Assembly (NCBI GenBank): GCA_040954595.2
Contig: CM082587.2
Location: 11,959,262 to 12,023,261 of the forward strand
DNA length: 64,000 bases
Direction of reading: 5' to 3'
Source of the DNA: Balanoglossus misakiensis
Taxonomy: Eukaryota; Animalia; Hemichordata
The translations under genes were made by a program, and so were the position numbers. The notes below the pieces were generated by a model. That model had not been told where the DNA came from, ran no database searches, and saw only the letters and a program-made list of their open reading frames with translations. Shown in pieces: positions 3,001 to 52,287 of this stretch; the first letter of the stretch is position 1, and every line of letters starts with the position of its first letter.

Positions 3001-6000
3001 AAAGAGCTTGGCACCTGTTGAAATGAACTCATCTGCTGTGGGCCAGTTTATTGGTGGCAGTTGAGCTGAGGAGAGCACCTTCCTTCCCGGCACGCCACCA
3101 AGTAAAGTTCCACGCCGCCCACCACAGATGCCAGCATTCATTCATGCGAGTGAGTGTAATTGCAAATTTGCCTATTCTAGATCTGTAATGGAAATGGAGA
3201 AAGTACCTTATATTTTCTGTAAAATAGACATTTAATTGGCAAGCCGTCCTGCATCAATTATGAATTGTGTACATGCACTAAAGCGCCCTCACTGCTGGGT
3301 GTGTTGTATGGTCTTTAACCCTGTTTCAAATTAGAGTACTTTCTGCAATTTCAAGACAGATCTTACGTGCCATTGGAGAGCTCCATTGACTGGTCATTCA
3401 TACTGTTTTCATTCATTCATTGCGGCATCAATATATTTTATCTATTCTAGCCAAAGAGCTTGGCACCTGTTGAAATGAACTCATCTGCTGTGGGCCAGTT
3501 TATTGGTGGCAGTTGAGCTGAGGAGAGCACCTTCCTTCCCGGCACGCCACCAAGTAAAGTTCCACGCCGCCCACCACAGATGCCAGCATTCATTCATGCG
3601 AGTGAGTGTAATTGCAAATTTGCCTATTCTAGATCTGTAATGGAAATGGAGAAAGTACCTTATATTTTCTGTAAAATAGACATTTAATTGGCAAGCCGTC
3701 CTGCATCAATTATGAATTGTGTACATGCACTAAAGCGCCCTCACTGCTGGGTGTGTTGTATGGTCTTTAACCCTGTTTCAAATTAGAGTACTTTCTGCAA
3801 TTTCAAGACAGATCTTACGTGCCATTGGAGAGCTCCATTGACTGGTCATTCATACTGTTTTCATTCATTCATTGCGGCATCAATATATTTTATGTATTCT
3901 AGCCAAAGAGCTTGGCACCTGTTGAAATGAACTCATCTGCTGTGGGCCAGTTTATTGGTGGCAGTTGAGCTGAGGAGAGCACCTTCCTTCCCGGCACGCC
4001 ACCAAGTAAAGTTCCACGCCGCCCACCACAGATGCCAGCATTCATTCATGCGAGTGAGTGTAATTGCAAATTTGCCTATTCTAGATCTGTAATGGAAATG
4101 GAGAAAGTACCTTATATTTTCTGTAAAATAGACATTTAATTGGCAAGCCGTCCTGCATCAATTATTAATTGTGTACATGCACTAAAGCGCCCTCACTGCT
4201 GGGTGTGTTGTATGGTCTTTAACCCTGTTTCAAATTAGAGTACTTTCTGCAATTTCAAGACAGATCTTACGTGCCATTGGAGAGCTCCATTGACTGGTCA
4301 TTCATACTGTTTTCATTCATTCATTGCGGCATCAATATATTTTATCTATTCTAGCCAAAGAGCTTGGCACCTGTTGAAATGAACTCATCTGCTGTGGGCC
4401 AGTTTATTGGTGGCAGTTGAGTTGAGGAGAGCACCTTCCTTCCCGGCACGCCACCAAGTAAAGTTCCACGCCGCCCACCACAGATGCCAGCATTCATTCA
4501 TGCGAGTGAGTGTAATTGCAAATTTGCCTATTCTAGAATTCTTACGTGCCATTGGAGAGCTCCATTGACTGGTCATTCATACTGTTTTCATTCATTCATT
4601 GCGGCATCAATATATTTTATGTATTCTAGCCAAAGAGCTTGGCACCTGTTGAAATGAACTCATCTGCTGTGGGCCAGTTTATTGGTGGCAGTTGAGCTGA
4701 GGAGAGCACCTTCCTTCCCGGCACGCCACCAAGTAAAGTTCCACGCCGCCCACCACAGATGCCAGCATTCATTCATGCGAGTGAGTGTAATTGCAAATTT
4801 GCCTATTCTAGATCTGTAATGGAAATGGAGAAAGTACCTTATATTTTCTGTAAAATAGACATTTAATTGGCAAGCCGTCCTGCATCAATTATGAATTGTG
4901 TACATGCACTAAAGCGCCCTCACTGCTGGGTGTGTTGTATGGTCTTTAACCCTGTTTCAAATTAGAGTACTTTCTGCAATTTCAAGACAGATCTTACGTG
5001 CCATTGGAGAGCTCCATTGACTGGTCATTCATACTGTTTTCATTCATTCATTGTGGCATCAATATATTTTATCTATTCTAGCCAAAGAGCTTGGCACCTG
5101 TTGAAATGAACTCATCTGCTGTGGGCCAGTTTATTGGTGGCAGTTGAGCTGAGGAGAGCACCTTCCTTCCCGGCACGCCACCAAGTAAAGTTCCACGCCG
5201 CCCACCACAGATGCCAGCATTCATTCATGCGAGTGAGTGTAATTGCAAATTTGCCTATTCTAGATCTGTAATGGAAATGGAGAAAGTACCTTATATTTTC
5301 TGTAAAATAGACATTTAATTGGCAAGCCGTCCTGCATCAATTATTAATTGTGTACATGCACTAAAGCGCCCTCACTGCTGGGTGTGTTGTATGGTCTTTA
5401 ACCCTGTTTCAAATTAGAGTACTTTCTGCAATTTCAAGACAGATCTTACGTGCCATTGGAGAGCTCCATTGACTGGTCATTCATACTGTTTTCATTCATT
5501 CATTGCGGCATCAATATATTTTATCTATTCTAGCCAAAGAGCTTGGCACCTGTTGAAATGAACTCATCTGCTGTGGGCCAGTTTATTGGTGGCAGTTGAG
5601 CTGAGAAGAGCACCTTCCTTCCCGGCACGCCACCAAGTAAAGTTCCACGCCGCCCACCACAGATGCCAGCATTCATTCATGCGAGTGAGTGTAATTGCAA
5701 ATTTGCCTATTCTAGATCTGTAATGGAAATGGAGAAAGTACCTTATATTTTCTGTAAAATAGACATTTAATTGGCAAGCCGTCCTGCATCAATTATGAAT
5801 TGTGTACATGCACTAAAGCGCCCTCACTGCTGGGTGTGTTGTATGGTCTTTAACCCTGTTTCAAATTAGAGTACTTTCTGCAATTTCAAGACAGATCTTA
5901 CGTGCCATTGGAGAGCTCCATTGACTGGTCATTCATACTGTTTTCATTCATTCATTGCGGCATCAATATATTTTATCTATTCTAGCCAAAGAGCTTGGCA

Positions 6001-12000: not shown

Positions 12001-13343
12001 ATACTGTTTTCATTCATTCATTGCGGCATCAATATATTTTATCTATTCTAGCCAAAGAGCTTGGCACCTGTTGAAATGAACTCATCTGCTGTGGGCCAGT
12101 TTATTGGTGGCAGTTGAGCTGAGGAGAGCACCTTCCTTCCCGGCACGCCACCAAGTAAAGTTCCACGCCGCCCACCACAGATGCCAGCATTCATTCATGC
12201 GAGTGAGTGTAATTGCAAATTTGCCTATTCTAGAATTACGTGCCATTGGAGAGCTCCATTGACTGGTCATTCATACTGTTTTCATTCATTCATTGCGGCA
12301 TCAATATATTTTATCTATTCTAGCCAAAGAGCTTGGCACCTGTTGAAATGAACTCATCTGCTGTGGGCCAGTTTATTGGTGGCAGTTGAGCTGAGGAGAG
12401 CACCTTCCTTCCCGGCACGCCACCAAGTAAAGTTCCACGCCGCCCACCACAGATGCCAGCATTCATTCATGCGAGTGAGTGTAATTGCAAATTTGCCTAT
12501 TCTAGATCTGTAATGGAAATGGAGAAAGTACCTTATATTTTCTGTAAAATAGACATTTAATTGGCAAGCCGTCCTGCATCAATTATGAATTGTGTACATG
12601 CACTAAAGCGCCCTCACTGCTGGGTGTGTTGTATGGTCTTTAACCCTGTTTCAAATTAGAGTACTTTCTGCAATTTCAAGACAGATCTTACGTGCCATTG
12701 GAGAGCTCCATTGACTGGTCATTCATACTGTTTTCATTCATTCATTGCGGCATCAATATATTTTATCTATTCTAGCCAAAGAGCTTGGCACCTGTTGAAA
12801 TGAACTCATCTGCTGTGGGCCAGTTTATTGGTGGCAGTTGAGCTGAGGAGAGCACCTTCCTTCCCGGCACGCCACCAAGTAAAGTTCCACGCCGCCCACC
12901 ACAGATGCCAGCATTCATTCATGCGAGTGAGTGTAATTGCAAATTTGCCTATTCTAGATCTGTAATGGAAATGGAGAAAGTACCTTATATTTTCTGTAAA
13001 ATAGACATTTAATTGGCAAGCCGTCCTGCATCAATTATGAATTGTGTACATGCACTAAAGCGCCCTCACTGCTGGGTGTGTTGTATGGTCTTTAACCCTG
13101 TTTCAAATTAGAGTACTTTCTGCAATTTCAAGACAGATCTTACGTGCCATTGGAGAGCTCCATTGACTGGTCATTCATACTGTTTTCATTCATTCATTGC
13201 GGCATCAATATATTTTATCTATTCTAGCCAAAGAGCTTGGCACCTGTTGAAATGAACTCATCTGCTGTGGGCCAGTTTATTGGTGGCAGTTGAGCTGAGG
13301 AGAGCACCTTCCTTCCCGGCACGCCACCAAGTAAAGTTCCACG
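1..13343. repeat. Satellite array 1: tandem 452-bp monomers (A + MITE-like B) mixed with 272-275-bp B-less monomers; open at the window's left edge
   Basis: Near-identical tandem units with a 452-bp period (e.g. identically phased ORF positions differ by multiples of 452 plus 272-275); only a few recurring SNPs. Confidence 0.98.
555..731. mobile_element. Representative 177-bp MITE-like element B (roughly 70 copies in the window, one per 452-bp monomer)
   Basis: Left end CTGTAATGGAAATGGAGAAAGTAC (555-578) matches the reverse complement of the right end (708-731, CTGTCTTGAAATTGCAGAAAGTAC) at 19/24 positions; AGATCT spans both junctions, consistent with an AT (or GATC/AGATCT) target duplication; B is absent from some monomers. 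Confidence 0.85.
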
Positions 13344-15133
13344 TGCATTCCTGGCCCTGGTTTTATTTATGTTTACAGACAATATTGCATTTTTGTACAA
13401 GTATTTTAATCAACTATAAATTTTGAATGTGTCATTTACCTGAACCGGTCATGTTGACCAGAATGATACATTTCTGCCTTCACTCACCCTATAAATATGT
13501 GATTGAGACATAGGTCATTTGCATAAGCTAACATACCAGAAAGTAAGCATATCTGTTGTTTTCCCTGTGTCACTGCCATCAAAGTAAAAATTAGACGTTG
13601 TGTAGAGCAAACTCCAATTTTTTGTTCTCAATAAACATGGATGAATTACATAGAATGTGTTTGTTGTTTACAGTCTTTAAATGACACATTAGATTATGCA
13701 CTTTACAAAACGTTTCTGAGAAACAAGTGACTAACTAGTTTCTTTCCACTGTGGCCAACGTGGTTCACTGTTTGTGTCAGAATCTCTCTGTTTTGCAAGG
13801 ATTTTGAAATCATAGTGGTGACATGCATAGTGAAAATCAGCTACTTTCAAATGTCCGTCATGTTCATGCTGTAATTGAATTTTCAAAGCTGGGCTGGCGT
13901 GTTTTTTCTTATTTACATAAGTATCACACTTTATACATGTATCTTCATGGGGTTTTTTGAGTCCCGTATTTAGGTCCTCTCTCACAATTTTACGAAATAT
14001 CGTATAACTGACAGTTGTTCTTCCCAGAAGAGATTGGTTGGTTATGAACTCTCGGTGTAACTGCGATATACTGTGGTCCGGCGCCAGGTACGGTTTAAAT
14101 CGAGGATTCCTGCAGTAGTGAGATTCTACAATTCTGTGCCTGCGTACGTGTTCAGTGATATCAGTCAGCAAATTTGGATTGAGTTTCCGACGATGCCCTT
14201 TGTGTCGGCCCCTTGCATCTGGCATCAGACCAGTAAAGTTCCATGTGCATTCCTGGCCCTGGTTTTATTTATGTTTACAGACAATATTGCATTTTTGTAC
14301 AAGTATTTTAATCAACTATAAATTTTGAATGTGTCATTTACCTGAACCGGTCATGTTGACCAGAATGATACATTTCTGCCTTCACTCACCCTATAAATAT
14401 GTGATTGAGACATAGGTCATTTGCATAAGCTAACATACCAGAAAGTAAGCATATCTGTTGTTTTCCCTGTGTCACTGCCATCAAAGTAAAAATTAGACGT
14501 TGTGTAGAGCAAACTCCAATTTTTTGTTCTCAATAAACATGGATGAATTACATAGAATGTGTTTGTTGTTTACAGTCTTTAAATGACACATTAGATTATG
14601 CACTTTACAAAACGTTTCTGAGAAACAAGTGACTAACTAGTTTCTTTCCACTGTGGCCAACGTGGTTCACTGTTTGTGTCAGAATCTCTCTGTTTTGCAA
14701 GGATTTTGAAATCATAGTGGTGACATGCATAGTGAAAATCAGCTACTTTCAAATGTCCGTCATGTTCATGCTGTAATTGAATTTTCAAAGCTGGGCTGGC
14801 GTGTTTTTTCTTATTTACATAAGTATCACACTTTATACATGTATCTTCATGGGGTTTTCTGAGTCCCGTATTTAGGTCCTCTCTCACAATTTTACGAAAT
14901 ATCGTATAACTGACAGTTGTTCTTCCCAGAAGAGATTGGTTGGTTATGAACTCTCGGTGTAACTGCGATATACTGTGGTCCGGCGCCAGGTACGGTTTAA
15001 ATCGAGGATTCCTGCAGTAGTGAGATTCTACAATTCTGTGCCTGCGTACGTGTTCAGTGATATCAGTCAGCAAATTTGGATTGAGTTTCCGACGATGCCC
15101 TTTGTGTCGGCCCCTTGCATCTGGCATCAGACC
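13330..15133. repeat. 902-bp tandem duplication (13330-14231 / 14232-15133) of the 3' part of the minus-strand gene and its downstream region
   Basis: ORF ends 13731 and 14633 differ by 902; AGT microhomology at the junction; two substitutions noticed between the copies. Confidence 0.95.
13731..14225 (-). pseudogene. 5'-truncated duplicate (164 aa) of the transposase N-terminal-half gene
   Basis: Identical to the last 164 aa of 14633-15589 except one R>K change; created by the 902-bp duplication. Confidence 0.85.
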
Positions 15134-15589
15134 AGTTGAACAGTGCATCATTTTGCTTAGAACGGTTCTAGTCCGCCTCTCACTAATGCCAAATAATTTC
15201 AGGAATGCATTTTTGCAGACAGTAACCGTTTCACCGCCTTCATTCACCAGGTGATAACGAACCGATTTCTTGTGTGACTTCATCTGTATATCCATCAGTT
15301 TGTAGAGCATCAAGTTCTGTTCATTATACACGCGACCATCAAAATATTTTCTCGTGGTGCCTAAAACATGCGTACTCCCAAGCTTCCGCAGACAATTCCC
15401 TTGAACGCAGGCGCATTCCAAGGAAAGACTGTCAATATCTGGAAAAGGGCGATTTTTCCTTGGTTTTTGTCTCGGACACGTCTTTTTAGAATTCCTACGT
15501 GGCTTGTTGGCTCGAGCTGACAGTTCGGTTCTGCGTTGCTGCCACACAGGAATGGGTTCCCACGCATAAGCAACTCCCCGGCAGGCCAT
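14633..15589 (-). CDS. Transposase N-terminal half (Cys/His-rich putative DNA-binding region, Sola1-like), 318 aa from the first ATG
   Basis: Motifs CxC(4)C, VCKNAFLKLFGIS, DARGRH, ESHYCR, PYL, YxIF, PHEDTCIKCD and H..H...A occur in the order I recognise from N-terminal halves of Sola1-type transposases; intronless; minus-strand AATAAA at 14264-14269. Confidence 0.8.
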   Translation of the reverse strand: MACRGVAYAWEPIPVWQQRRTELSARANKPRRNSKKTCPRQKPRKNRPFPDIDSLSLECACVQGNCLRKLGSTHVLGTTRKYFDGRVYNEQNLMLYKLMDIQMKSHKKSVRYHLVNEGGETVTVCKNAFLKLFGISERRTRTVLSKMMHCSTGLMPDARGRHKGHRRKLNPNLLTDITEHVRRHRIVESHYCRNPRFKPYLAPDHSISQLHREFITNQSLLGRTTVSYTIFRKIVREDLNTGLRKPHEDTCIKCDTYVNKKKHASPALKIQLQHEHDGHLKVADFHYACHHYDFKILAKQRDSDTNSEPRWPQWKETS

Positions 15590-15760
15590 GGTCACAGCTG
15601 AAGTATTTGTTCAAGTACTGACTGACTAAACGCGGCATGGAACAAACGAACGAACGAACGAACGACTTCACGTTCGGAAAAAAAATCGTTGCGAGCTGTT
15701 GGGTGCCTCTATAGTTGTCGGCAACCGTTCTTTTTTATTGCTAAACAATGCTGTCAGAGC
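15590..15760. promoter_or_regulatory. Putative bidirectional promoter between the two transposase halves, containing a short (GAAC)n tract
   Basis: 171 bp between divergent ATGs; GAAC repeats at ~15640-15666; promoter function inferred from geometry only. Confidence 0.55.
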
Positions 15761-16774
15761 ATGGAAGGTGTGGTGGAAAACGAACAGAGGTTTTGTACGA
15801 CCAACGATTGGATGGTGCTACATATGGACTTCCACAAGTCATTGCCGGTTCCTAAACTCAGCTCTGAAGACTTTTACTTTAAATCGAAATTGCAAATGAA
15901 GCTCCTTGGAATTTACAACGGGACAACGGAAAAGATGCATTGTTATGTATGGACAGAGCTCGATAGCAGAAAGTCTCCCGATGAAGTTATTACCTGTCTA
16001 AATCACTTTTTTTATAACTCGGGTGTGACCAGCAGACATGCAGTTATTTACAGCGACAACTGCCGTGCCGAATTCAAGTGTGGGAAGTTAATGTTTTACT
16101 ATGACTATCTGTTACGAAAGGGCGTGTTTCGACGAATTGACTATAAAACTCTTGTGGCTGGACACACGTACTCCACCTGTGACCGAGTTTTTGCGTCCAT
16201 TGAAAGGCATGCAAGTCGTTTCCAGAGTATAGAGACACCTCACGATTGGACATCTGTGATTCGAGGATCTTCTCTGAATGGGAACATTGGAGTTACGGAG
16301 ATGACTCACAGAGACTTTTTCAATTATTCTGATTTCCTGAAAAATGAGTACGTTGTGCGTTATGCAGATACAAACAATGTAACTTTTTACTACCAAGCCA
16401 TGCACTATTTTAATTTTGGAGAAGGAGAAAGGCTTGATACCGACGGCAACCTCAGAACATTTAGTCATGCAGATAAAGTTTGGGTGAGAACATCTCTAGA
16501 TCCAAGCGAGACCCCGATTGTAGTCGACTTTAGAAAGAAGAAGCAGAACCGGCGTTTACAAGATTGTACGCTGAACAAACTTTATCAGGAACGTCGACCA
16601 CTGGCGAGCAAAGTTTGGCGGGATCTTCAGAGTTTAGCCAAAAATTACCTGTCTCCGGAGGCAATAGAATTTTATAGGAATCTACCGCTTCAGGAGAGTA
16701 GTGGCACCTCTGCAGACCCGTACGCCTTTCATGATGATGACGACGACGATGATGATGATATGGGCGGTGGTTGA
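15761..16774 (+). CDS. Transposase catalytic half (RNase H-fold DDD core, Sola1-like), 337 aa from the first ATG, with acidic tail
   Basis: MDFHKSLPVPKL, FYFKSKL, CYVWTE, EVITCL, YSDNC and GHTYSTCDRVFASIE supply three candidate catalytic Asp; ATTAAA at 16875 followed by a GT-rich tract. Confidence 0.85.
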   Translation: MEGVVENEQRFCTTNDWMVLHMDFHKSLPVPKLSSEDFYFKSKLQMKLLGIYNGTTEKMHCYVWTELDSRKSPDEVITCLNHFFYNSGVTSRHAVIYSDNCRAEFKCGKLMFYYDYLLRKGVFRRIDYKTLVAGHTYSTCDRVFASIERHASRFQSIETPHDWTSVIRGSSLNGNIGVTEMTHRDFFNYSDFLKNEYVVRYADTNNVTFYYQAMHYFNFGEGERLDTDGNLRTFSHADKVWVRTSLDPSETPIVVDFRKKKQNRRLQDCTLNKLYQERRPLASKVWRDLQSLAKNYLSPEAIEFYRNLPLQESSGTSADPYAFHDDDDDDDDDMGGG

Positions 16775-17092
16775 ACAAACTGTCCTTTTCATGACGACAG
16801 TGATTTTGGATATTTGATGTGCGTGCACAGTTTATATGTAATATTTTCACACGAACGAGTTTTGACTGAATTTGATTAAAGAATGTACTCGATAATTAAC
16901 AAATGTGCTGAATCGTGGTTATTATGTTGTTAATTTTTGTTTGTTTGTTTGTTTGTTTGTAAACAATTTCCGTTCATTCAACTGGCTACAAAGTTGGATT
17001 TTTGTACTGGGAAGCGATAAACTCGCACATCAAAACCGGGGAGACTCGATCATTTTTCCCTGCAGGTAGCCTGAAAAGCACCCGGGCAGAGA

Positions 17093-17166
17093 TTACGTCA
17101 TATATGGTCCACTTTAATACGAAATTATGCAAATGTGACATTTCACGGAAACGGCGTATATAAAAG
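17093..17166 (+). promoter_or_regulatory. Pol II promoter of the SET gene: CRE-like TTACGTCA (17093), octamer ATGCAAAT (17127), TATA box TATATAAAAG (17157)
   Basis: Consensus motifs clustered ~90-165 bp upstream of the ATG at 17258. Confidence 0.6.
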
Positions 17167-17257
17167 CGACCCTGGGCTATTGTTCGGAATGCGTCATCGA
17201 CGAGAGAGTGACTGATAATTCTTCTACCTCGAGTCAACCATTCTGTATATACTGAAC

Positions 17258-18584
17258 ATGGCTAGCTGGCGCAGGAAGAGACAAGGCAATGTGCGGTCTG
17301 TAATCAACGAACGGCACCGCTCAGTTCAGTGTCCCTTTCTTCAAAAGTGGATCGGTGAGCAATTGGTATTTTCAGGTCGTTCAGAGGATGAAGTCCAGTC
17401 CAGTACTGTATTTGAGAGCTACAAATGTTGGGTTGAAAACTATTCGTCGGCGGACAATCAAGTAATGATTATGGTTACTAAAGCTCGATTTTTCAAGGTG
17501 AGAATGATCGCATTTTTCTTCCCCCCCCCCCTCCCTCCCCCAAGGGACTCGTTTTCTGTCTCTTTTAAACCTGTAACTTAACGAAAAGGAAGTTTTTCAC
17601 ATATCTCTTTGTTGACACTATAGCAATTTGGAGCGCGGATGCTTCAAGAGAATAGCGTTACCAAATCAAAGTCGGCCGGGGTTAATATTTATAGAGGTGT
17701 TCGTCTGAAAGCTGGTTCGCGAAGAATCTCAACGGGGAAACCTGAGCACAGTGTACTTCAGACCAGGGCAAGGGCATTTCTTGATGACGCCAGCGTGACC
17801 GTTCCGATCGAGGTAAGAATGGTGTTTTGTTTGGACTAGGACAATAGAACGTTGCAATGAGTGTGTCAATGGGTGTCCAAGTGCAAACGTGGTCGGCTTC
17901 TGTCCACAAATGCCATTAATTTTAGGCAGGATTTATAAAATTGTCAATGAAGAATACAAAAATGAAAAACAATAGTTAATAGCAAACGGGTAGGATTGCA
18001 AGGGCTTGTAAAACGGTACACACTGTACCAGGAAGTTTGCAACACTAATGAAGAATGTATATGATATATTTAGGTGAGAACTGTTCGCGATCGCCGGGAC
18101 GCAGGACGGTGCGCGTTTTCGACGAGGGATCTTCAAGCCTGGAACGTCGTCTGCGAATACCGGGGCACGGTTATTAGCGTTGAAGAAGCTAGTCGGCGTG
18201 ATGAACTTTACAGGGCAGAGGGGAAACGACCACGCATGTTTCATCTCTACATTGGAAAGAGACACGTTGTGTGAGTGTATCACTTAGTCGAATATATGGT
18301 CATATATTGCAAAGCATCTGTCGAAATAGAAAACGTAATATTGTCTATATTTTCCTCATTAACGCAGCATTGACGGATACGATGTCCCAGCCGGTGAAGA
18401 AAATTTAGCGGGCCTAATAAATCACAGTCAGCAGAACGCCAACTTGGTACCGGTTCGGATCGGAGAGCGCCTGGTTTTCTTTGCAACCAGGAATCTTTGT
18501 CAGGGAGTAGAGCTTTTGTATGATTACGGTGACGGGGGTGAAGAGGATTTCTTCAGTGGTTCTCAAACTTTTCCTGAAAATTAA
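17258..18584 (+). CDS. Winged-helix + SET-domain lysine methyltransferase (PR-Set7/SETD8-like), 280 aa; exons 17258-17497, 17624-17812, 18074-18270, 18368-18584
   Basis: Three GT-AG introns (phases 0, 0, 2) splice to one open frame with GRCAF, VCEYRG, VIDG, AGLINHS and ELLYDYGD motifs and no post-SET cysteines; the N-terminus resembles RFX/D5-type winged helix. Confidence 0.9.
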
Positions 18585-19492
18585 GGCATTAACACATCAA
18601 CGCTTCGGGATGTCGTAACGGCGGCAAGGCGGGGGGGGGGGGGGGGGGGGCGTGAAAATGTTTGTATCAGGAACAAAATTCCCGTGCAAATCACCTTGAT
18701 CCGGGTGGGTGGACTATTCGCGACAAATGTTGAAATCATACAAAGCATTTTACTTAATTAACCCATTTTTTTCATTTATTTGTTTACAGTTTACAACGTC
18801 ATAGAGAAGTTGAACTAGAGACTGGATCAGCGTGGGTGACACCATAGTACACCAATGTTTTCTTCAGTTTGATTCAATTGTAATTTAAAACTGAGATTGC
18901 CTAACGCTTTCCCAGATTTTTTTAACCACTGAGAAACTGTGGGTTTTTTTCTGGGTTTTGGTGCGAGGTGATCTCAGTCAGTGGTGTTAATTTAATTAAT
19001 CATTTTCTTTTCCTATTTACGTCGACTGAAATGTATTTTGATAGGTGATAGTCATACCATAAAAAAATCTTACGGCGCGACTGCCAAAATGTACATTTAT
19101 TTGTCCGTTCCAAGTTATTTTGTGTATGTGTGATGGGTGCCGGTGACTGTGCAGGGTTGATTTCCCTAGAGCGACTGTTATATTCGTTTTCCAACGATGA
19201 TGAATTTACATGTTATTTGCTTGGCATTTTGACGCAGAGACACTTCTGAAAACACAAACCTATTAATTATGCCACGGGTGTAAATTGATCACATTAAAAG
19301 AGGCTTTAGACGTTTGCCGCGAGCTCCTGGTGGGCAGAATCTTGTCAGCCCAAATTTGACTATAAGTACATAGCCAATGATGTGACGCTCTCCCACATCC
19401 TTCGCCGCGCCTTTTCGCTGATTTACAGCATCTTGCGTAAACACTGTCATTTGATCTTGCTTGGCAGAAGTCAACTTGCTCTATACTACATT

Positions 19493-19858
19493 ATGGCGGC
19501 CAAGCTCAACTGCATATCAGATAATGCCAAGGAGCGTTTGAGAGGCATCCTCGCCAGAAGGAGTCGCGTTTCCGGTGACTGTGTGCTCTGGACGGGTGCA
19601 GCTTGTCGAAACGGCTATGGCTCTATTACGTTCAGAGATGAGAACACTCTAACCGCCTATGTCCATCACATTGCACTCCTAATTAACGGAGTGCAATTGG
19701 TGGGCAGGCGGTTAGAGTGTTCTCATCTTTGCAACGAAAAGCTATGCATCCGCCCAGAGCACATTGTCCAGGAAACGCGACTCCTAAACATTTCACGAAA
19801 GACGTGCTTTAAATCCCCAAAAGGGGAGTGTCACCACGATCCCAGGTGCCTAAGGTGA
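19493..19858 (+). CDS. His-Me finger endonuclease, His-Cys box / I-PpoI-like zinc-binding loop type, 121 aa (may be spliced at 19855)
   Basis: CVLWTG, GYG, YVHH, SHLCNEKLCIRPEH, E(4)N(2)R(2)C and CHHDPRC motifs; ATG at 19493; AG|GTGAGT overlaps the stop codon. Confidence 0.88.
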   Translation: MAAKLNCISDNAKERLRGILARRSRVSGDCVLWTGAACRNGYGSITFRDENTLTAYVHHIALLINGVQLVGRRLECSHLCNEKLCIRPEHIVQETRLLNISRKTCFKSPKGECHHDPRCLR

Positions 19859-20110
19859 GTAATCCTCTTCTCATTTGATATGTATTGTGTGACCCTGCAG
19901 TTGAAACGCTTTCATCAATAATTTGCGGCGCGTGGGTAATCTCGGTGTTATTGACAATGCAGCCGGCCCAAACATTTTTAAATTAACACTGTTTCTGACT
20001 GTATTAACGAAATGTCCAATTTGCAAGTAGCCTATAGACAACCCTTTTGAATGAGTTTTGTCTCGTTGAGATTTTATACATAAGGAACAATCTAGATTTA
20101 TTTTAGAAGA

Positions 20111-20529
20111 CACTGTTCTTTTAAAACAGCTAGCATAATACAGCTAAATTTCGGAATTTCCGGACAATTTTCGGAATTCCTTTTAAATTTGAGAAATTTT
20201 TCATCAGATATAAGTGTTACTATTTATTGGACATGTTTTTATCATTGTTTACTTTTTAAGGTCATTCTCATCCCCCCCCCCCCCCCAAAAAAAAAGCCGC
20301 TTTAGGCTTCATGTTCAGTAAAAAATCTGGAAAGTTCAGCTGAATTTTACACTGATCACACATTTTTGGGAAGGTCTGGCGCAAAATAAAGGATGACAAA
20401 TGTAAATCTAATGTCACATTTGTAAACCTCTAAGTATTGTACACTCATTCTATTAAGTATATGCAAATAGTACGGATAATTTTTTCGGAATGTGGAATTC
20501 CGAAATTAGTTCGGAACGTGTTAGCAGTG
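20111..20529. mobile_element. Possible degenerate nested non-autonomous element (CACTG...CAGTG, flanked by AAGA)
   Basis: 5-bp inverted termini, 4-bp AAGA direct repeat on both sides, and inverted subterminal TTTCGGAATT motifs. Confidence 0.4.
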
Positions 20530-20840
20530 AAGAGATCACCACTGAGGGTTGGAAGGCCTTGCCAGAAATTAACGCGTAAAGTACGCCCTCACAGGCCATG
20601 TAAACAAGGTCAAATAAGGCCGTCTGGCAAACGAATGATTAATTCAACGCGCCATTTGAGCCGAGCTGAGTTGGTCTGAGTTGCGTATCACACAGACTTA
20701 GGCTGAATGTCAGTGGAGTAACCAGTCCGTTTTAGATTTACCAATGATGTGAATTTAATTTCTTCACCCAGAAAAACAGAACACAACTTGTCTGCAACAT
20801 GATGCTGGAGGTGACACATGACAGAGAAGTGGATCCGCGT

Positions 20841-21175
20841 TGTCAACACAGATGCCAGCATTCAAAAGGGGAGTGCCACCTGCTAAAATCAACTCATCTG
20901 CTGTTGGCCCATTTTACCTGTGGCAACTGTTCAGAGGAGACAACGTTTATTCCGTGCAAGCCAACACGCAATGTTGGGGTCTACCTGTCAACACAGATGC
21001 AAGCATTCATGTGAGTGAGTATCAGGACTGACCTTGTTTTGCTGAATAATTCATAATGCCTATTTTAGAATTCTTAGAGGCATTTGGAGTTCATTGCCTG
21101 GTCAACCAAACTACACCCCTTAACAGCTGAAACAAAATGCGTATTGTGTTCATTCATTCATTGCTTCAATATATA
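20841..21175 (+). repeat. Diverged, B-less homologue of satellite unit A inside the cassette
   Basis: Colinear shared blocks CACCTG, AACTCATCTGCTGT, GAGGAGA, CACAGATGC.AGCATTCAT, GAGTGAGT, TGCCTATT.TAGA, CATTG.CTGGTCA and TTCATTCATTCATTGC. Confidence 0.85.
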
Positions 21176-21489
21176 TAGGCAACATGAGTATCAAGTAGCA
21201 CTATTTGTTTACGATTGTATTCATGAAAACTTCCCACTAACAATTCCACAGTTAATATTGAACACATTTATCCAACAAGGTCAAAAGAAAAAGGGAATCT
21301 TCTGGTTCCAAAATACGCCACAAATGTGGGTCAACATACAGTGAAATATTATGGTGCTCAAATATGCAACATATCAAATCTGTCTCATCAAAGTCATGCT
21401 TTAAAAAAGAATTGAAAAGGTATTATTTATCCATTTGACTGCTGTATTTTCAGAAGGAAAACAAACTGAATTTGGTTTTTCATGTACAA

Positions 21490-24400
21490 ATATTTTCTGT
21501 AAAATAGACATTTAATTGGCAAGCCGTCCTGCATCAATTATTAATTGTGTACATGCACTAAAGCGCCCTCACTGCTGGGTGTGTTGTATGGTCTTTAACC
21601 CTGTTTCAAATTAGAGTACTTTCTGCAATTTCAAGACAGATCTTACGTGCCATTGGAGAGCTCCATTGACTGGTCATTCATACTGTTTTCATTCATTCAT
21701 TGCGGCATCAATATATTTTATGTATTCTAGCCAAAGAGCTTGGCACCTGTTGAAATGAACTCATCTGCTGTGGGCCAGTTTATTGGTGGCAGTTGAGCTG
21801 AGGAGAGCACCTTCCTTCCCGGCACGCCACCAAGTAAAGTTCCACGCCGCCCACCACAGATGCCAGCATTCATTCATGCGAGTGAGTGTAATTGCAAATT
21901 TGCCTATTCTAGATCTGTAATGGAAATGGAGAAAGTACCTTATATTTTCTGTAAAATAGACATTTAATTGGCAAGCCGTCCTGCATCAATTATTAATTGT
22001 GTACATGCACTAAAGCGCCCTCACTGCTGGGTGTGTTGTATGGTCTTTAACCCTGTTTCAAATTAGAGTACTTTCTGCAATTTCAAGACAGATCTTACGT
22101 GCCATTGGAGAGCTCCATTGACTGGTCATTCATACTGTTTTCATTCATTCATTGCGGCATCAATATATTTTATCTATTCTAGCCAAAGAGCTTGGCACCT
22201 GTTGAAATGAACTCATCTGCTGTGGGCCAGTTTATTGGTGGCAGTTGAGCTGAGGAGAGCACCTTCCTTCCCGGCACGCCACCAAGTAAAGTTCCACGCC
22301 GCCCACCACAGATGCCAGCATTCATTCATGCGAGTGAGTGTAATTGCAAATTTGCCTATTCTAGAATTACGTGCCATTGGAGAGCTCCATTGACTGGTCA
22401 TTCATACTGTTTTCATTCATTCATTGCGGCATCAATATATTTTATCTATTCTAGCCAAAGAGCTTGGCACCTGTTGAAATGAACTCATCTGCTGTGGGCC
22501 AGTTTATTGGTGGCAGTTGAGCTGAGGAGAGCACCTTCCTTCCCGGCACGCCACCAAGTAAAGTTCCACGCCGCCCACCACAGATGCCAGCATTCATTCA
22601 TGCGAGTGAGTGTAATTGCAAATTTGCCTATTCTAGATCTGTAATGGAAATGGAGAAAGTACCTTATATTTTCTGTAAAATAGACATTTAATTGGCAAGC
22701 CGTCCTGCATCAATTATGAATTGTGTACATGCACTAAAGCGCCCTCACTGCTGGGTGTGTTGTATGGTCTTTAACCCTGTTTCAAATTAGAGTACTTTCT
22801 GCAATTTCAAGACAGATCTTACGTGCCATTGGAGAGCTCCATTGACTGGTCATTCATACTGTTTTCATTCATTCATTGCGGCATCAATATATTTTATCTA
22901 TTCTAGCCAAAGAGCTTGGCACCTGTTGAAATGAACTCATCTGCTGTGGGCCAGTTTATTGGTGGCAGTTGAGCTGAGGAGAGCACCTTCCTTCCCGGCA
23001 CGCCACCAAGTAAAGTTCCACGCCGCCCACCACAGATGCCAGCATTCATTCATGCGAGTGAGTGTAATTGCAAATTTGCCTATTCTAGAATCTTACGTGC
23101 CATTGGAGAGCTCCATTGACTGGTCATTCATACTGTTTTCATTCATTCATTGCGGCATCAATATATTTTATCTATTCTAGCCAAAGAGCTTGGCACCTGT
23201 TGAAATGAACTCATCTGCTGTGGGCCAGTTTATTGGTGGCAGTTGAGCTGAGGAGAGCACCTTCCTTCCCGGCACGCCACCAAGTAAAGTTCCACGCCGC
23301 CCACCACAGATGCCAGCATTCATTCATGCGAGTGAGTGTAATTGCAAATTTGCCTATTCTAGATCTGTAATGGAAATGGAGAAAGTACCTTATATTTTCT
23401 GTAAAATAGACATTTAATTGGCAAGCCGTCCTGCATCAATTATTAATTGTGTACATGCACTAAAGCGCCCTCACTGCTGGGTGTGTTGTATGGTCTTTAA
23501 CCCTGTTTCAAATTAGAGTACTTTCTGCAATTTCAAGACAGATCTTACGTGCCATTGGAGAGCTCCATTGACTGGTCATTCATACTGTTTTCATTCATTC
23601 ATTGCGGCATCAATATATTTTATCTATTCTAGCCAAAGAGCTTGGCACCTGTTGAAATGAACTCATCTGCTGTGGGCCAGTTTATTGGTGGCAGTTGAGC
23701 TGAGAAGAGCACCTTCCTTCCCGGCACGCCACCAAGTAAAGTTCCACGCCGCCCACCACAGATGCCAGCATTCATTCATGCGAGTGAGTGTAATTGCAAA
23801 TTTGCCTATTCTAGATCTGTAATGGAAATGGAGAAAGTACCTTATATTTTCTGTAAAATAGACATTTAATTGGCAAGCCGTCCTGCATCAATTATGAATT
23901 GTGTACATGCACTAAAGCGCCCTCACTGCTGGGTGTGTTGTATGGTCTTTAACCCTGTTTCAAATTAGAGTACTTTCTGCAATTTCAAGACAGATCTTAC
24001 GTGCCATTGGAGAGCTCCATTGACTGGTCATTCATACTGTTTTCATTCATTCATTGCGGCATCAATATATTTTATCTATTCTAGCCAAAGAGCTTGGCAC
24101 CTGTTGAAATGAACTCATCTGCTGTGGGCCAGTTTATTGGTGGCAGTTGAGCTGAGGAGAGCACCTTCCTTCCCGGCACGCCACCAAGTAAAGTTCCACG
24201 CCGCCCACCACAGATGCCAGCATTCATTCATGCGAGTGAGTGTAATTGCAAATTTGCCTATTCTAGATCTGTAATGGAAATGGAGAAAGTACCTTATATT
24301 TTCTGTAAAATAGACATTTAATTGGCAAGCCGTCCTGCATCAATTATGAATTGTGTACATGCACTAAAGCGCCCTCACTGCTGGGTGTGTTGTATGGTCT

Positions 24401-31264: not shown

Positions 31265-31651
31265 TGCATTCCTGGCCCTGGTTTTATTTATGTTTACAGA
31301 CAATATTGCATTTTTGTACAAGTATTTTAATCAACTATAAATTTTGAATGTGTCATTTACCTGAACCGGTCATGTTGACCAGAATGATACATTTCTGCCT
31401 TCACTCACCCTATAAATATGTGATTGAGACATAGGTCATTTGCATAAGCTAACATACCAGAAAGTAAGCATATCTGTTGTTTTCCCTGTGTCACTGCCAT
31501 CAAAGTAAAAATTAGACGTTGTGTAGAGCAAACTCCAATTTTTTGTTCTCAATAAACATGGATGAATTACATAGAATGTGTTTGTTGTTTACAGTCTTTA
31601 AATGACACATTAGATTATGCACTTTACAAAACGTTTCTGAGAAACAAGTGA

Positions 31652-32146
31652 CTAACTAGTTTCTTTCCACTGTGGCCAACGTGGTTCACTGTTTGTGTCA
31701 GAATCTCTCTGTTTTGCAAGGATTTTGAAATCATAGTGGTGACATGCATAGTGAAAATCAGCTACTTTCAAATGTCCGTCATGTTCATGCTGTAATTGAA
31801 TTTTCAAAGCTGGGCTGGCGTGTTTTTTCTTATTTACATAAGTATCACACTTTATACATGTATCTTCATGGGGTTTTTTGAGTCCCGTATTTAGGTCCTC
31901 TCTCACAATTTTACGAAATATCGTATAACTGACAGTTGTTCTTCCCAGAAGAGATTGGTTGGTTATGAACTCTCGGTGTAACTGCGATATACTGTGGTCC
32001 GGCGCCAGGTACGGTTTAAATCGAGGATTCCTGCAGTAGTGAGATTCTACAATTCTGTGCCTGCGTACGTGTTCAGTGATATCAGTCAGCAAATTTGGAT
32101 TGAGTTTCCGACGATGCCCTTTGTGTCGGCCCCTTGCATCTGGCAT
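31652..32146 (-). pseudogene. Truncated duplicate of the transposase N-half gene, copy 2
   Basis: Identical translation to 13731-14225. Confidence 0.85.
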
Positions 32147-32553
32147 CAGACCAGTAAAGTTCCATGTGCATTCCTGGCCCTGGTTTTATTTATGTTTACA
32201 GACAATATTGCATTTTTGTACAAGTATTTTAATCAACTATAAATTTTGAATGTGTCATTTACCTGAACCGGTCATGTTGACCAGAATGATACATTTCTGC
32301 CTTCACTCACCCTATAAATATGTGATTGAGACATAGGTCATTTGCATAAGCTAACATACCAGAAAGTAAGCATATCTGTTGTTTTCCCTGTGTCACTGCC
32401 ATCAAAGTAAAAATTAGACGTTGTGTAGAGCAAACTCCAATTTTTTGTTCTCAATAAACATGGATGAATTACATAGAATGTGTTTGTTGTTTACAGTCTT
32501 TAAATGACACATTAGATTATGCACTTTACAAAACGTTTCTGAGAAACAAGTGA

Positions 32554-33510
32554 CTAACTAGTTTCTTTCCACTGTGGCCAACGTGGTTCACTGTTTGTGT
32601 CAGAATCTCTCTGTTTTGCAAGGATTTTGAAATCATAGTGGTGACATGCATAGTGAAAATCAGCTACTTTCAAATGTCCGTCATGTTCATGCTGTAATTG
32701 AATTTTCAAAGCTGGGCTGGCGTGTTTTTTCTTATTTACATAAGTATCACACTTTATACATGTATCTTCATGGGGTTTTCTGAGTCCCGTATTTAGGTCC
32801 TCTCTCACAATTTTACGAAATATCGTATAACTGACAGTTGTTCTTCCCAGAAGAGATTGGTTGGTTATGAACTCTCGGTGTAACTGCGATATACTGTGGT
32901 CCGGCGCCAGGTACGGTTTAAATCGAGGATTCCTGCAGTAGTGAGATTCTACAATTCTGTGCCTGCGTACGTGTTCAGTGATATCAGTCAGCAAATTTGG
33001 ATTGAGTTTCCGACGATGCCCTTTGTGTCGGCCCCTTGCATCTGGCATCAGACCAGTTGAACAGTGCATCATTTTGCTTAGAACGGTTCTAGTCCGCCTC
33101 TCACTAATGCCAAATAATTTCAGGAATGCATTTTTGCAGACAGTAACCGTTTCACCGCCTTCATTCACCAGGTGATAACGAACCGATTTCTTGTGTGACT
33201 TCATCTGTATATCCATCAGTTTGTAGAGCATCAAGTTCTGTTCATTATACACGCGACCATCAAAATATTTTCTCGTGGTGCCTAAAACATGCGTACTCCC
33301 AAGCTTCCGCAGACAATTCCCTTGAACGCAGGCGCATTCCAAGGAAAGACTGTCAATATCTGGAAAAGGGCGATTTTTCCTTGGTTTTTGTCTCGGACAC
33401 GTCTTTTTAGAATTCCTACGTGGCTTGTTGGCTCGAGCTGACAGTTCGGTTCTGCGTTGCTGCCACACAGGAATGGGTTCCCACGCATAAGCAACTCCCC
33501 GGCAGGCCAT
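32554..33510 (-). CDS. Transposase N-terminal half, copy 2
   Basis: Identical translation to copy 1. Confidence 0.8.
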   Translation of the reverse strand: MACRGVAYAWEPIPVWQQRRTELSARANKPRRNSKKTCPRQKPRKNRPFPDIDSLSLECACVQGNCLRKLGSTHVLGTTRKYFDGRVYNEQNLMLYKLMDIQMKSHKKSVRYHLVNEGGETVTVCKNAFLKLFGISERRTRTVLSKMMHCSTGLMPDARGRHKGHRRKLNPNLLTDITEHVRRHRIVESHYCRNPRFKPYLAPDHSISQLHREFITNQSLLGRTTVSYTIFRKIVREDLNTGLRKPHEDTCIKCDTYVNKKKHASPALKIQLQHEHDGHLKVADFHYACHHYDFKILAKQRDSDTNSEPRWPQWKETS

Positions 33511-33681
33511 GGTCACAGCTGAAGTATTTGTTCAAGTACTGACTGACTAAACGCGGCATGGAACAAACGAACGAACGAACGAACGACTTCACGTTCGGAA
33601 AAAAAATCGTTGCGAGCTGTTGGGTGCCTCTATAGTTGTCGGCAACCGTTCTTTTTTATTGCTAAACAATGCTGTCAGAGC

Positions 33682-34695
33682 ATGGAAGGTGTGGTGGAAA
33701 ACGAACAGAGGTTTTGTACGACCAACGATTGGATGGTGCTACATATGGACTTCCACAAGTCATTGCCGGTTCCTAAACTCAGCTCTGAAGACTTTTACTT
33801 TAAATCGAAATTGCAAATGAAGCTCCTTGGAATTTACAACGGGACAACGGAAAAGATGCATTGTTATGTATGGACAGAGCTCGATAGCAGAAAGTCTCCC
33901 GATGAAGTTATTACCTGTCTAAATCACTTTTTTTATAACTCGGGTGTGACCAGCAGACATGCAGTTATTTACAGCGACAACTGCCGTGCCGAATTCAAGT
34001 GTGGGAAGTTAATGTTTTACTATGACTATCTGTTACGAAAGGGCGTGTTTCGACGAATTGACTATAAAACTCTTGTGGCTGGACACACGTACTCCACCTG
34101 TGACCGAGTTTTTGCGTCCATTGAAAGGCATGCAAGTCGTTTCCAGAGTATAGAGACACCTCACGATTGGACATCTGTGATTCGAGGATCTTCTCTGAAT
34201 GGGAACATTGGAGTTACGGAGATGACTCACAGAGACTTTTTCAATTATTCTGATTTCCTGAAAAATGAGTACGTTGTGCGTTATGCAGATACAAACAATG
34301 TAACTTTTTACTACCAAGCCATGCACTATTTTAATTTTGGAGAAGGAGAAAGGCTTGATACCGACGGCAACCTCAGAACATTTAGTCATGCAGATAAAGT
34401 TTGGGTGAGAACATCTCTAGATCCAAGCGAGACCCCGATTGTAGTCGACTTTAGAAAGAAGAAGCAGAACCGGCGTTTACAAGATTGTACGCTGAACAAA
34501 CTTTATCAGGAACGTCGACCACTGGCGAGCAAAGTTTGGCGGGATCTTCAGAGTTTAGCCAAAAATTACCTGTCTCCGGAGGCAATAGAATTTTATAGGA
34601 ATCTACCGCTTCAGGAGAGTAGTGGCACCTCTGCAGACCCGTACGCCTTTCATGATGATGACGACGACGATGATGATGATATGGGCGGTGGTTGA
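33682..34695 (+). CDS. Transposase catalytic DDD half, copy 2
   Basis: Identical translation to copy 1. Confidence 0.85.
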   Translation: MEGVVENEQRFCTTNDWMVLHMDFHKSLPVPKLSSEDFYFKSKLQMKLLGIYNGTTEKMHCYVWTELDSRKSPDEVITCLNHFFYNSGVTSRHAVIYSDNCRAEFKCGKLMFYYDYLLRKGVFRRIDYKTLVAGHTYSTCDRVFASIERHASRFQSIETPHDWTSVIRGSSLNGNIGVTEMTHRDFFNYSDFLKNEYVVRYADTNNVTFYYQAMHYFNFGEGERLDTDGNLRTFSHADKVWVRTSLDPSETPIVVDFRKKKQNRRLQDCTLNKLYQERRPLASKVWRDLQSLAKNYLSPEAIEFYRNLPLQESSGTSADPYAFHDDDDDDDDDMGGG

Positions 34696-35178
34696 ACAAA
34701 CTGTCCTTTTCATGACGACAGTGATTTTGGATATTTGATGTGCGTGCACAGTTTATATGTAATATTTTCACACGAACGAGTTTTGACTGAATTTGATTAA
34801 AGAATGTACTCGATAATTAACAAATGTGCTGAATCGTGGTTATTATGTTGTTAATTTTTGTTTGTTTGTTTGTTTGTTTGTAAACAATTTCCGTTCATTC
34901 AACTGGCTACAAAGTTGGATTTTTGTACTGGGAAGCGATAAACTCGCACATCAAAACCGGGGAGACTCGATCATTTTTCCCTGCAGGTAGCCTGAAAAGC
35001 ACCCGGGCAGAGATTACGTCATATATGGTCCACTTTAATACGAAATTATGCAAATGTGACATTTCACGGAAACGGCGTATATAAAAGCGACCCTGGGCTA
35101 TTGTTCGGAATGCGTCATCGACGAGAGAGTGACTGATAATTCTTCTACCTCGAGTCAACCATTCTGTATATACTGAAC

Positions 35179-36505
35179 ATGGCTAGCTGGCGCAGGAAGA
35201 GACAAGGCAATGTGCGGTCTGTAATCAACGAACGGCACCGCTCAGTTCAGTGTCCCTTTCTTCAAAAGTGGATCGGTGAGCAATTGGTATTTTCAGGTCG
35301 TTCAGAGGATGAAGTCCAGTCCAGTACTGTATTTGAGAGCTACAAATGTTGGGTTGAAAACTATTCGTCGGCGGACAATCAAGTAATGATTATGGTTACT
35401 AAAGCTCGATTTTTCAAGGTGAGAATGATCGCATTTTTCTTCCCCCCCCCCCTCCCTCCCCCAAGGGACTCGTTTTCTGTCTCTTTTAAACCTGTAACTT
35501 AACGAAAAGGAAGTTTTTCACATATCTCTTTGTTGACACTATAGCAATTTGGAGCGCGGATGCTTCAAGAGAATAGCGTTACCAAATCAAAGTCGGCCGG
35601 GGTTAATATTTATAGAGGTGTTCGTCTGAAAGCTGGTTCGCGAAGAATCTCAACGGGGAAACCTGAGCACAGTGTACTTCAGACCAGGGCAAGGGCATTT
35701 CTTGATGACGCCAGCGTGACCGTTCCGATCGAGGTAAGAATGGTGTTTTGTTTGGACTAGGACAATAGAACGTTGCAATGAGTGTGTCAATGGGTGTCCA
35801 AGTGCAAACGTGGTCGGCTTCTGTCCACAAATGCCATTAATTTTAGGCAGGATTTATAAAATTGTCAATGAAGAATACAAAAATGAAAAACAATAGTTAA
35901 TAGCAAACGGGTAGGATTGCAAGGGCTTGTAAAACGGTACACACTGTACCAGGAAGTTTGCAACACTAATGAAGAATGTATATGATATATTTAGGTGAGA
36001 ACTGTTCGCGATCGCCGGGACGCAGGACGGTGCGCGTTTTCGACGAGGGATCTTCAAGCCTGGAACGTCGTCTGCGAATACCGGGGCACGGTTATTAGCG
36101 TTGAAGAAGCTAGTCGGCGTGATGAACTTTACAGGGCAGAGGGGAAACGACCACGCATGTTTCATCTCTACATTGGAAAGAGACACGTTGTGTGAGTGTA
36201 TCACTTAGTCGAATATATGGTCATATATTGCAAAGCATCTGTCGAAATAGAAAACGTAATATTGTCTATATTTTCCTCATTAACGCAGCATTGACGGATA
36301 CGATGTCCCAGCCGGTGAAGAAAATTTAGCGGGCCTAATAAATCACAGTCAGCAGAACGCCAACTTGGTACCGGTTCGGATCGGAGAGCGCCTGGTTTTC
36401 TTTGCAACCAGGAATCTTTGTCAGGGAGTAGAGCTTTTGTATGATTACGGTGACGGGGGTGAAGAGGATTTCTTCAGTGGTTCTCAAACTTTTCCTGAAA
36501 ATTAA
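35179..36505 (+). CDS. Winged-helix + SET methyltransferase (4 exons), copy 2
   Basis: Same exons and splice sites at +17921. Confidence 0.9.
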
Positions 36506-37412
36506 GGCATTAACACATCAACGCTTCGGGATGTCGTAACGGCGGCAAGGCGGGGGGGGGGGGGGGGGGGCGTGAAAATGTTTGTATCAGGAACAAAATT
36601 CCCGTGCAAATCACCTTGATCCGGGTGGGTGGACTATTCGCGACAAATGTTGAAATCATACAAAGCATTTTACTTAATTAACCCATTTTTTTCATTTATT
36701 TGTTTACAGTTTACAACGTCATAGAGAAGTTGAACTAGAGACTGGATCAGCGTGGGTGACACCATAGTACACCAATGTTTTCTTCAGTTTGATTCAATTG
36801 TAATTTAAAACTGAGATTGCCTAACGCTTTCCCAGATTTTTTTAACCACTGAGAAACTGTGGGTTTTTTTCTGGGTTTTGGTGCGAGGTGATCTCAGTCA
36901 GTGGTGTTAATTTAATTAATCATTTTCTTTTCCTATTTACGTCGACTGAAATGTATTTTGATAGGTGATAGTCATACCATAAAAAAATCTTACGGCGCGA
37001 CTGCCAAAATGTACATTTATTTGTCCGTTCCAAGTTATTTTGTGTATGTGTGATGGGTGCCGGTGACTGTGCAGGGTTGATTTCCCTAGAGCGACTGTTA
37101 TATTCGTTTTCCAACGATGATGAATTTACATGTTATTTGCTTGGCATTTTGACGCAGAGACACTTCTGAAAACACAAACCTATTAATTATGCCACGGGTG
37201 TAAATTGATCACATTAAAAGAGGCTTTAGACGTTTGCCGCGAGCTCCTGGTGGGCAGAATCTTGTCAGCCCAAATTTGACTATAAGTACATAGCCAATGA
37301 TGTGACGCTCTCCCACATCCTTCGCCGCGCCTTTTCGCTGATTTACAGCATCTTGCGTAAACACTGTCATTTGATCTTGCTTGGCAGAAGTCAACTTGCT
37401 CTATACTACATT

Positions 37413-37778
37413 ATGGCGGCCAAGCTCAACTGCATATCAGATAATGCCAAGGAGCGTTTGAGAGGCATCCTCGCCAGAAGGAGTCGCGTTTCCGGTGACT
37501 GTGTGCTCTGGACGGGTGCAGCTTGTCGAAACGGCTATGGCTCTATTACGTTCAGAGATGAGAACACTCTAACCGCCTATGTCCATCACATTGCACTCCT
37601 AATTAACGGAGTGCAATTGGTGGGCAGGCGGTTAGAGTGTTCTCATCTTTGCAACGAAAAGCTATGCATCCGCCCAGAGCACATTGTCCAGGAAACGCGA
37701 CTCCTAAACATTTCACGAAAGACGTGCTTTAAATCCCCAAAAGGGGAGTGTCACCACGATCCCAGGTGCCTAAGGTGA
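37413..37778 (+). CDS. His-Me finger (His-Cys box) endonuclease, copy 2
   Basis: Identical translation to copy 1. Confidence 0.88.
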   Translation: MAAKLNCISDNAKERLRGILARRSRVSGDCVLWTGAACRNGYGSITFRDENTLTAYVHHIALLINGVQLVGRRLECSHLCNEKLCIRPEHIVQETRLLNISRKTCFKSPKGECHHDPRCLR

Positions 37779-51900: not shown

Positions 51901-52287
51901 TGCATTCCTGGCCCTGGTTTTATTTATGTTTACAGACAATATTGCATTTTTGTACAAGTATTTTAATCAACTATAAATTTTGAATGTGTCATTTACCTGA
52001 ACCGGTCATGTTGACCAGAATGATACATTTCTGCCTTCACTCACCCTATAAATATGTGATTGAGACATAGGTCATTTGCATAAGCTAACATACCAGAAAG
52101 TAAGCATATCTGTTGTTTTCCCTGTGTCACTGCCATCAAAGTAAAAATTAGACGTTGTGTAGAGCAAACTCCAATTTTTTGTTCTCAATAAACATGGATG
52201 AATTACATAGAATGTGTTTGTTGTTTACAGTCTTTAAATGACACATTAGATTATGCACTTTACAAAACGTTTCTGAGAAACAAGTGA

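Follow-up and report, generated by a model that had tools for sequence, protein, structure and literature searches.

In this study we describe an 8,296-bp unit that is present three times within a satellite array, in a stretch of 64,000 nucleotides from the hemichordate Balanoglossus misakiensis (assembly GCA_040954595.2, contig CM082587.2, positions 11,959,262 to 12,023,261 of the forward strand; this stretch is called the window, and all coordinates refer to it). Each unit contains four intact coding units: the N-terminal and C-terminal halves of a transposase (N-half and C-half), a SET gene and a His-Cys-box nuclease gene. The N-half alone is on the (-) strand, the other three being on the (+) strand. 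On balance, we favor the view that the unit is a DNA transposon that moves by cut and paste, belongs to a split Sola-like lineage apparently without a name, and carries SET and nuclease genes. The label 'Sola-like' is our own assumption for DUF7869 transposases, based on motifs, and none of the analyses returned the name Sola. The split transposase lineage itself we consider very probably real.

The two transposase halves are encoded by divergent open reading frames (ORFs). The N-half (14633-15589, (-) strand) is a Cys/His-rich protein of 318 amino acids (aa) that ends in a Pro-x-Trp tail. The C-half (15761-16774, (+) strand; 337 aa) is a DUF7869 protein of RNase H/integrase fold, in which D23, D99, D141 and E148 are intact. 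Between the two start codons lies a spacer of 171 bp (15590-15760), which is likely to be a bidirectional promoter. DUF7869 (E 1.4e-14) is the sole Pfam match for the transposase, no Pfam match being found for the N-half ORF. A model of the C-half based on a 52-row alignment (predicted local distance difference test score 89.1) has retroviral integrases and IstA as its best fold matches in the PDB, and the same alignment conserves D141 in 52 rows, D23 and D99 in 51 each, and E148 in 48. The N-half has 2,597 relatives. Among 159 proteins fetched, 78 contain both halves in a single chain, mostly with a gap of 0 to 30 aa. The two ORFs therefore correspond to neighboring halves of a single ancestral protein, a DUF7869 (Sola-like) DDD transposase, of which the N-half is likely the DNA- or zinc-binding part.

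Sequence comparison further indicates that the split is a trait of a lineage and not local damage. The best six of the 2,597 N-half matches are 306 to 347 aa long, cover the query almost entirely and are 33 to 40% identical to it. In a quick IQ-TREE phylogeny of 61 chosen rows, 13 of them form an N-only clade with a long stem and a Shimodaira-Hasegawa approximate likelihood-ratio support of 100, and all 44 fused rows as well as the four other N-only rows are placed outside it; none of the 12 homologues in this clade scored against the C-half profile. A Pro-x-Trp/Phe tail stands right before the stop codon in six of the seven closest N-halves, and since an intron would not conserve such a tail, read-through into an intron is disfavored. 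The C-half search, limited to candidates of 185 to 590 aa, gave two matches among 418, and both of these C-only homologues begin at the same alignment column. Half-length gene models are found at NCBI in Saccoglossus (C-half) and in Oculina and Actinostola (N-half), so named hosts of split halves comprise one hemichordate and two cnidarians. The closest N-half and the closest C-half homologue each come from one 2,400-bp Logan contig, presumably the same one. A word-index protein search with the N-half matched none of its 276 length-limited candidates. A preliminary description of this DNA had proposed a split DDD transposase; the N-only clade and the shared start of the C-halves make the case stronger than it was put there, as the split is conserved across a lineage.

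Two further features of the C-half were observed. A Q..N motif follows the second Asp (residues 99-107, window 16055-16081), each of the two residues being present in 48 of 52 rows, with Gln replaced by Glu in all three C-only proteins; and an Asp-rich acidic run, which both C-only homologues lack, is located at the C-half terminus (16730-16762).

A single related locus was read (L001). It lies in a Microscillaceae metagenome bin (HAS44388.1), is probably host DNA contaminating this bacterial bin, and encodes at 3917-4965 an animal-type N-half of 30% identity, at whose 3' end the contig stops. The assembly behind it contains one N-half and two SETs, neither aligning to the SET of the unit, and returned no C-half or His-Cys match, an empty answer that is uninformative. 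Scans for related loci among viral contigs and metagenome contigs found nothing; a viral origin was considered and rejected, no viral loci having been found.

The satellite surrounding the units is made of A (274 bp, 100 matches) and B (178 bp, 71 matches) in irregular alternation. A (for example 21640-21913, (+) strand) is the host repeat of B. B minus its first base (21915-22091, (+) strand) is a 177-bp miniature inverted-repeat transposable element (MITE), CTG...CAG, with AT (or GATC) on either side; it lies within an AGATCT palindrome. The terminal inverted repeats (TIRs) of B match at 19 of 24 terminal positions, which 0 of 20,000 shuffles reach. The unit itself terminates in this sequence: its last 150 bp (21490-21639, (+) strand) are B29-178, that is, the last 150 bp of B, and include the right TIR (21616-21639). 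Letters are added at the B29 junction (21486-21490) in the main contig of run X1, and copies differ there. The array monomer had been proposed to combine the element's own end (B) with a relative of its internal sequence (A), and both parts of this proposal hold, a diverged A-A relative (A84-274 followed by A1-77, with an AATT-type junction) being found inside the unit at 20852-21174 ((+) strand), about 71% identical to satellite A. B is likely a deletion derivative of the element, and we consider it probable that the B end belongs to the element of the split transposase.

The window contains 96 A-A junctions, 68 with B and 28 without. The B-less junctions fall into four scar types (10, 9, 7 and 2 occurrences; examples at 274, 1000, 2628 and 4532) and include no precise empty site, which is indicative of repeated cutting; away from the junction, the monomer alignments contain substitutions and no indels. 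Excision of the Ac/Ds kind leaves flank-hairpin scars, and the four types fit such an origin. Whether the scars stem from excision of B or from a nuclease, the B-site junction was probably broken more than once, which is in keeping with the earlier suggestion that the element cuts its own satellite.

The three units (copy 1, 13344-21639; copy 2, 31265-39560; copy 3, 51901-60196) differ from each other at 3 homopolymer positions only, and the spacers between them measure 9,625 and 12,340 bp, where arrays of 10 to 13 kb had been described. Copies 1 and 3 are offset by 38,557 bp and are higher-order repeat partners: they lie within a 24,437-bp stretch (1007-25443) that is repeated at 39564-64000 with 99.996% identity, and the period of 38,557 bp holds two units. 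Three independent insertions were therefore rejected, the copies being a single unit amplified in a 38.6-kb higher-order repeat. Of the initial statement that the four genes travel together in three copies, the copies and the genes are real and intact, but a single amplification is not evidence of joint travel. Information on other copies comes from runs X1 and X2, which are one sample, possibly related to the source of the window, and whose depth gives no copy number; runs X3 and X4 yielded satellite contigs and low-depth identical pieces only, and were not used as evidence from a second species. Contigs of diverged copies join an A-like repeat to the left end of the unit (variants 13352/13363, joint 20963-14233), so that the association of the unit with A appears older than the array. 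Run joints near 20740-21175 reveal several diverged A-like tandem variants in the genome, and the satellite family is wider than the array of the window.

The SET gene (17258-18584, (+) strand) consists of four GT-AG exons (17258-17497, 17624-17812, 18074-18270 and 18368-18584) that form one intact frame of 280 aa. Its identity was correctly recognized, as exons 3 and 4 both match Pfam SET. For exon 4 the nearest relative is KMT5A/SETD8, of the subfamily of H4K20 monomethylation (14 of 15 PDB matches are KMT5A, and one is another SET), and exon 3 has KMT2C/D as its best PDB matches. Searched singly, the N-terminal exons (about 140 aa) gave nothing significant in Pfam or PHROGs, nor did exon 1 in the PDB, which leaves the earlier label of a 'DNA-binding' SET protein unconfirmed; this N-terminus may bear a likeness to D5/RFX winged helices. 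Among the variants listed for runs X1 and X2, synonymous changes make up 9 of the 14 coding changes in SET, and 7 of the 9 in exon 4, a modest sign that the gene is under purifying selection. That SET marks the satellite array seems to us rather unlikely.

The nuclease gene (19493-19858, (+) strand; 121 aa) encodes a His-Cys-box, I-PpoI-like endonuclease, as had been described: the ORF matches PF05551 and I-PpoI, and has the residues S77, H78, H90, E94 and N99 together with the Cys/His zinc-ligand pattern. The spacing of these residues is that of the conserved residues in the KolobokP paper. A word-index protein search matched none of four length-limited candidates. A splice-donor-like site (AG/GTGAGT, 19854-19862) overlaps the stop codon, and a further exon could encode an I-PpoI-like dimerization tail. 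Whether the nuclease drives the array is doubtful, though we hold it a little less so than marking by SET.

Within the nuclease coding sequence, a hairpin of 93 pairs is predicted (19559-19785, (+) strand; 87 Watson-Crick and 6 G-U pairs). None of 100 shuffles is as stable (z -15.3), and when 60 windows were slid along the unit, none outside the hairpin went below -74 kcal/mol, compared to -122 kcal/mol for the hairpin. Its arms encode parts of the nuclease domain, CVLWTG standing opposite CIRPEH and DENTLT opposite ECSHLC. The question arises as to whether the pairing is imposed by the protein sequence. Synonymous recoding of the hairpin peptide gave 0 of 300 sequences as stable (z -14.7), and at most 61 Watson-Crick pairs across 5,000 recodings, against the 87 found. 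Since recodings never match the energy or the pair count, the pairing is not a by-product of the protein, and this explanation was rejected; in only 19 of the 93 cases does the protein dictate both partners of a Watson-Crick pair. Selection on the RNA and conversion between the arms are both possible origins under this predicted fold. We lean slightly towards a hairpin selected as a regulator, possibly a self-brake on the nuclease. A diverged copy carries G19635A, which turns a G-U pair of the hairpin into an A-U pair, along with an altered right arm. Rfam gave no match in window positions 12900-22400. The preliminary description had overlooked this hairpin, as well as the MITE nature of B and the scars at the B-less junctions.

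How does the unit compare with known systems? Its transposase has a putative likeness to Sola1 in the DUF7869 domain, in a DDD triad with a GH motif and in the Cys/His N-terminal region of fused relatives, none of which carries a name among those looked up; the C-half has the RNase H-type fold and the triad. Sola1 has AWWT target duplications and one ORF (PMC3845634). The unit, in contrast, has two divergent genes where Sola1 has one ORF of about 630 aa, CTG ends, and SET and nuclease cargo; and B is flanked by AT (or GATC) instead of AWWT, a difference that is valid only if the B end is the end of the element. As for the TIRs at both ends of Sola1, the unit has its right TIR (21616-21639) and no left one.

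The KolobokP transposons of Kojima and Bao (2022; PMC9587614) combine a transposase with a C/DxxH signature and an I-PpoI-like nuclease (S97, H98, H110, E114, N119), have long terminal direct repeats (LTDRs) with TIRs, undergo solo excision and form multimers, for which a model of induced unequal crossover was proposed. The unit likewise associates a DDD/E transposase with an I-PpoI-like His-Cys nuclease (S77, H78, H90, E94 and N99 being the corresponding residues), and is found in tandem multimers, as the higher-order repeat shows, together with a TIR-bearing piece which, given the four scars, would be excisable. However, its transposase is split and of DUF7869 type with a GH-x5-D motif, not of Kolobok type; its TIR piece is 177 bp long with CT..AG ends, in place of paired LTDRs of about 450/660 bp with RR..YY ends; and it has a SET gene, as well as a nuclease-gene hairpin of a kind that goes unmentioned for KolobokP in the accessible text (PMC9587614). 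The element thus works like KolobokP but is not one, and its membership in Sola is not established.

HarbingerS and Phytophthora MuDR transposons also carry a separate SET histone methyltransferase gene (PMC12730594, accessible part), but their transposases are unrelated, the sole transposase Pfam match of the unit being DUF7869 and not Harbinger, and that part of the article reports no His-Cys nuclease or satellite for them. The phage homing endonucleases I-TevI/II/III, SegB and MobE are restrained by hairpins at the ribosome-binding site (PMC2988022), the analogy behind a possible self-brake, whereas in the animal gene described here the 93 predicted pairs fall within the coding sequence. 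Satellite monomers and higher-order repeats are known to derive from transposon pieces; the present array differs from those described (PMC5932611, PMC12628747) by keeping an intact multi-gene parent inside. The literature covered also included PMC13565253, PMC5751038, PMC10294476 and bioRxiv 2021.09.26.461848. No split Sola-like lineage or four-gene combination was found in this literature, Repbase, Dfam and most subscription papers being outside the search, and a database entry for the element may exist.

We infer expression, reassembly, cutting and marking alike in the following scheme. The 171-bp spacer would drive co-expression of the two halves, which would then reassemble into one transposase. 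This transposase would have inserted B (28 bp from the left joined to 150 bp from the right) at the AGATCT site of A, and later excision of B would have left flank-hairpin, Ac/Ds-like scars. The nuclease would cut within the array, for which the palindrome of the A-A junction is the candidate target, and units would be copied when a misaligned sister serves as the template for repair, as modelled for KolobokP (PMC9587614); the array would then grow by unequal crossing-over, which the nuclease may stimulate. The coding hairpin would act as a restraint on the nuclease, whether by small RNA, by editing or by blocking translation, and SET would modify the local chromatin. The unit likely seeded the satellite and would help to expand it; the 'chromatin niche' that the preliminary description had the element build is a hypothesis. 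As to whether SET and nuclease are ancestral cargo, we see the chances as even.

Several observations weigh against this reading. The three copies are one amplified event, copies 1 and 3 sitting in a near-identical 24,437-bp stretch, and are therefore silent on independent co-mobility. No left TIR was found within the unit. The AT (or GATC) duplication and CTG ends of B are unlike the AWWT of Sola1, which leaves room for a B end that comes from a different family, and the scars could equally have arisen from an ancestral AATT site, cut by a nuclease, through three small deletions. At L001, the 3.9 kb upstream of the N-half contain no C-half, SET or nuclease, which means that the head-to-head order is not universal. 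Among the 12 homologues of the N-only clade, three are short fragments and one is truncated by the end of its contig, and many homologue gene calls ignore introns. Finally, one of the listed SET variants, at 18375, gives a stop codon when taken by itself, and exons 3 and 4, with their KMT2C/D and KMT5A likenesses, disagree over the histone mark.

The main rival explanation is a chance nest, in which an element with a split transposase, a SET-nuclease module of unrelated origin, a MITE and an end from a different TIR family came together in satellite A, where unequal crossing-over amplified them passively. The single amplification, the missing left TIR, the absence of cargo upstream at L001 and the presence of a nested MITE are all expected under it, as is the behavior of diverged contigs of run X1, whose extra depth falls on SET exon 4 and the nuclease, with little on the C-half. 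Unrelated debris does not readily account, however, for four intact genes that are co-oriented except for the N-half, for mostly synonymous changes in SET, for diverged copies that also join an A-like repeat to the left end of the unit, or for the identity of B with the unit's own right end. We regard the chance nest as unlikely.

Less probable still is a KolobokP-style composite, in which B would be a short solo terminal unit, the mobile piece would begin with the left TIR of the B upstream (12960) and end with the right TIR (21639), and the array would be a multimer with excisable terminal units instead of a decayed insertion. B does have TIRs of its own and seems to be excisable, A and B together give a period of 452 bp, close to the LTDR class of about 450 bp, and KolobokP has TIR-bearing LTDRs that excise alone, forms multimers and carries a His-Cys nuclease (PMC9587614). 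But the TIRs bound B (177 bp) and not AB, the right-hand B is incomplete, and the transposase is not of Kolobok type. We attach even less weight to a domesticated host cassette, with genes that serve the host in the upkeep of centromeric or germline repeats, or in programmed DNA cutting, and an array that is their target: a spliced SET under apparent purifying selection, a homogeneous higher-order repeat and a split into separately controlled subunits, as in RAG1/RAG2-type systems, would suit it, yet the unit is multi-copy with diverged paralogues, retains a TIR end and a MITE derivative, and has patchy homologues. That the split is an artefact, with exons separated by intron-blind gene calling and a gene broken here by a local inversion, is hardly credible: most homologues do come from Logan/ENA gene calls, and members of one cluster diverge past a shared, splice-site-like point (P0162 versus P0165), but the tail before the stop is conserved, C-halves share their start, NCBI models are half-length, and both ORFs of the window are intact.

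Other features of the unit are as follows. A 902-bp tandem duplication (13331-15134, with 2 differences) comprises the 3' half of the N-half gene and 13 bp of satellite A; it has double depth in run X1, and would have arisen after the unit joined A. It leaves a partial N-half frame of 177 codons (13731-14264, (-) strand). The nested MITE-like repeat, with inverted arms, is located at 20145-20524; it is separate from B, its other copies have different flanks, and it has a shorter left arm than the other copies in the genome, as judged from loose ends in run X1.

In its fullest form, the proposal would be that marine animals harbor a conserved selfish system of four genes, with a two-subunit transposase homing to its own satellite, a hairpin-throttled nuclease expanding the array and a private histone methyltransferase licensing the chromatin; we think this improbable, slightly more so than the chance nest. 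If true, the transposon would both build its own satellite and maintain it. A stable two-gene form of a eukaryotic DDD transposase, an enzyme that is normally a single chain, would offer a natural model for the origin and control of two-subunit recombinases, and complementary hairpin arms that encode two catalytic-domain motifs would be an unusual overlap of protein and RNA constraint. The array keeps together the parent element, its MITE derivative, the scars and the higher-order repeat; because all four are preserved, the path from transposon to satellite, along with the 'nuclease-induced unequal crossover' model of KolobokP, becomes testable at a named site.

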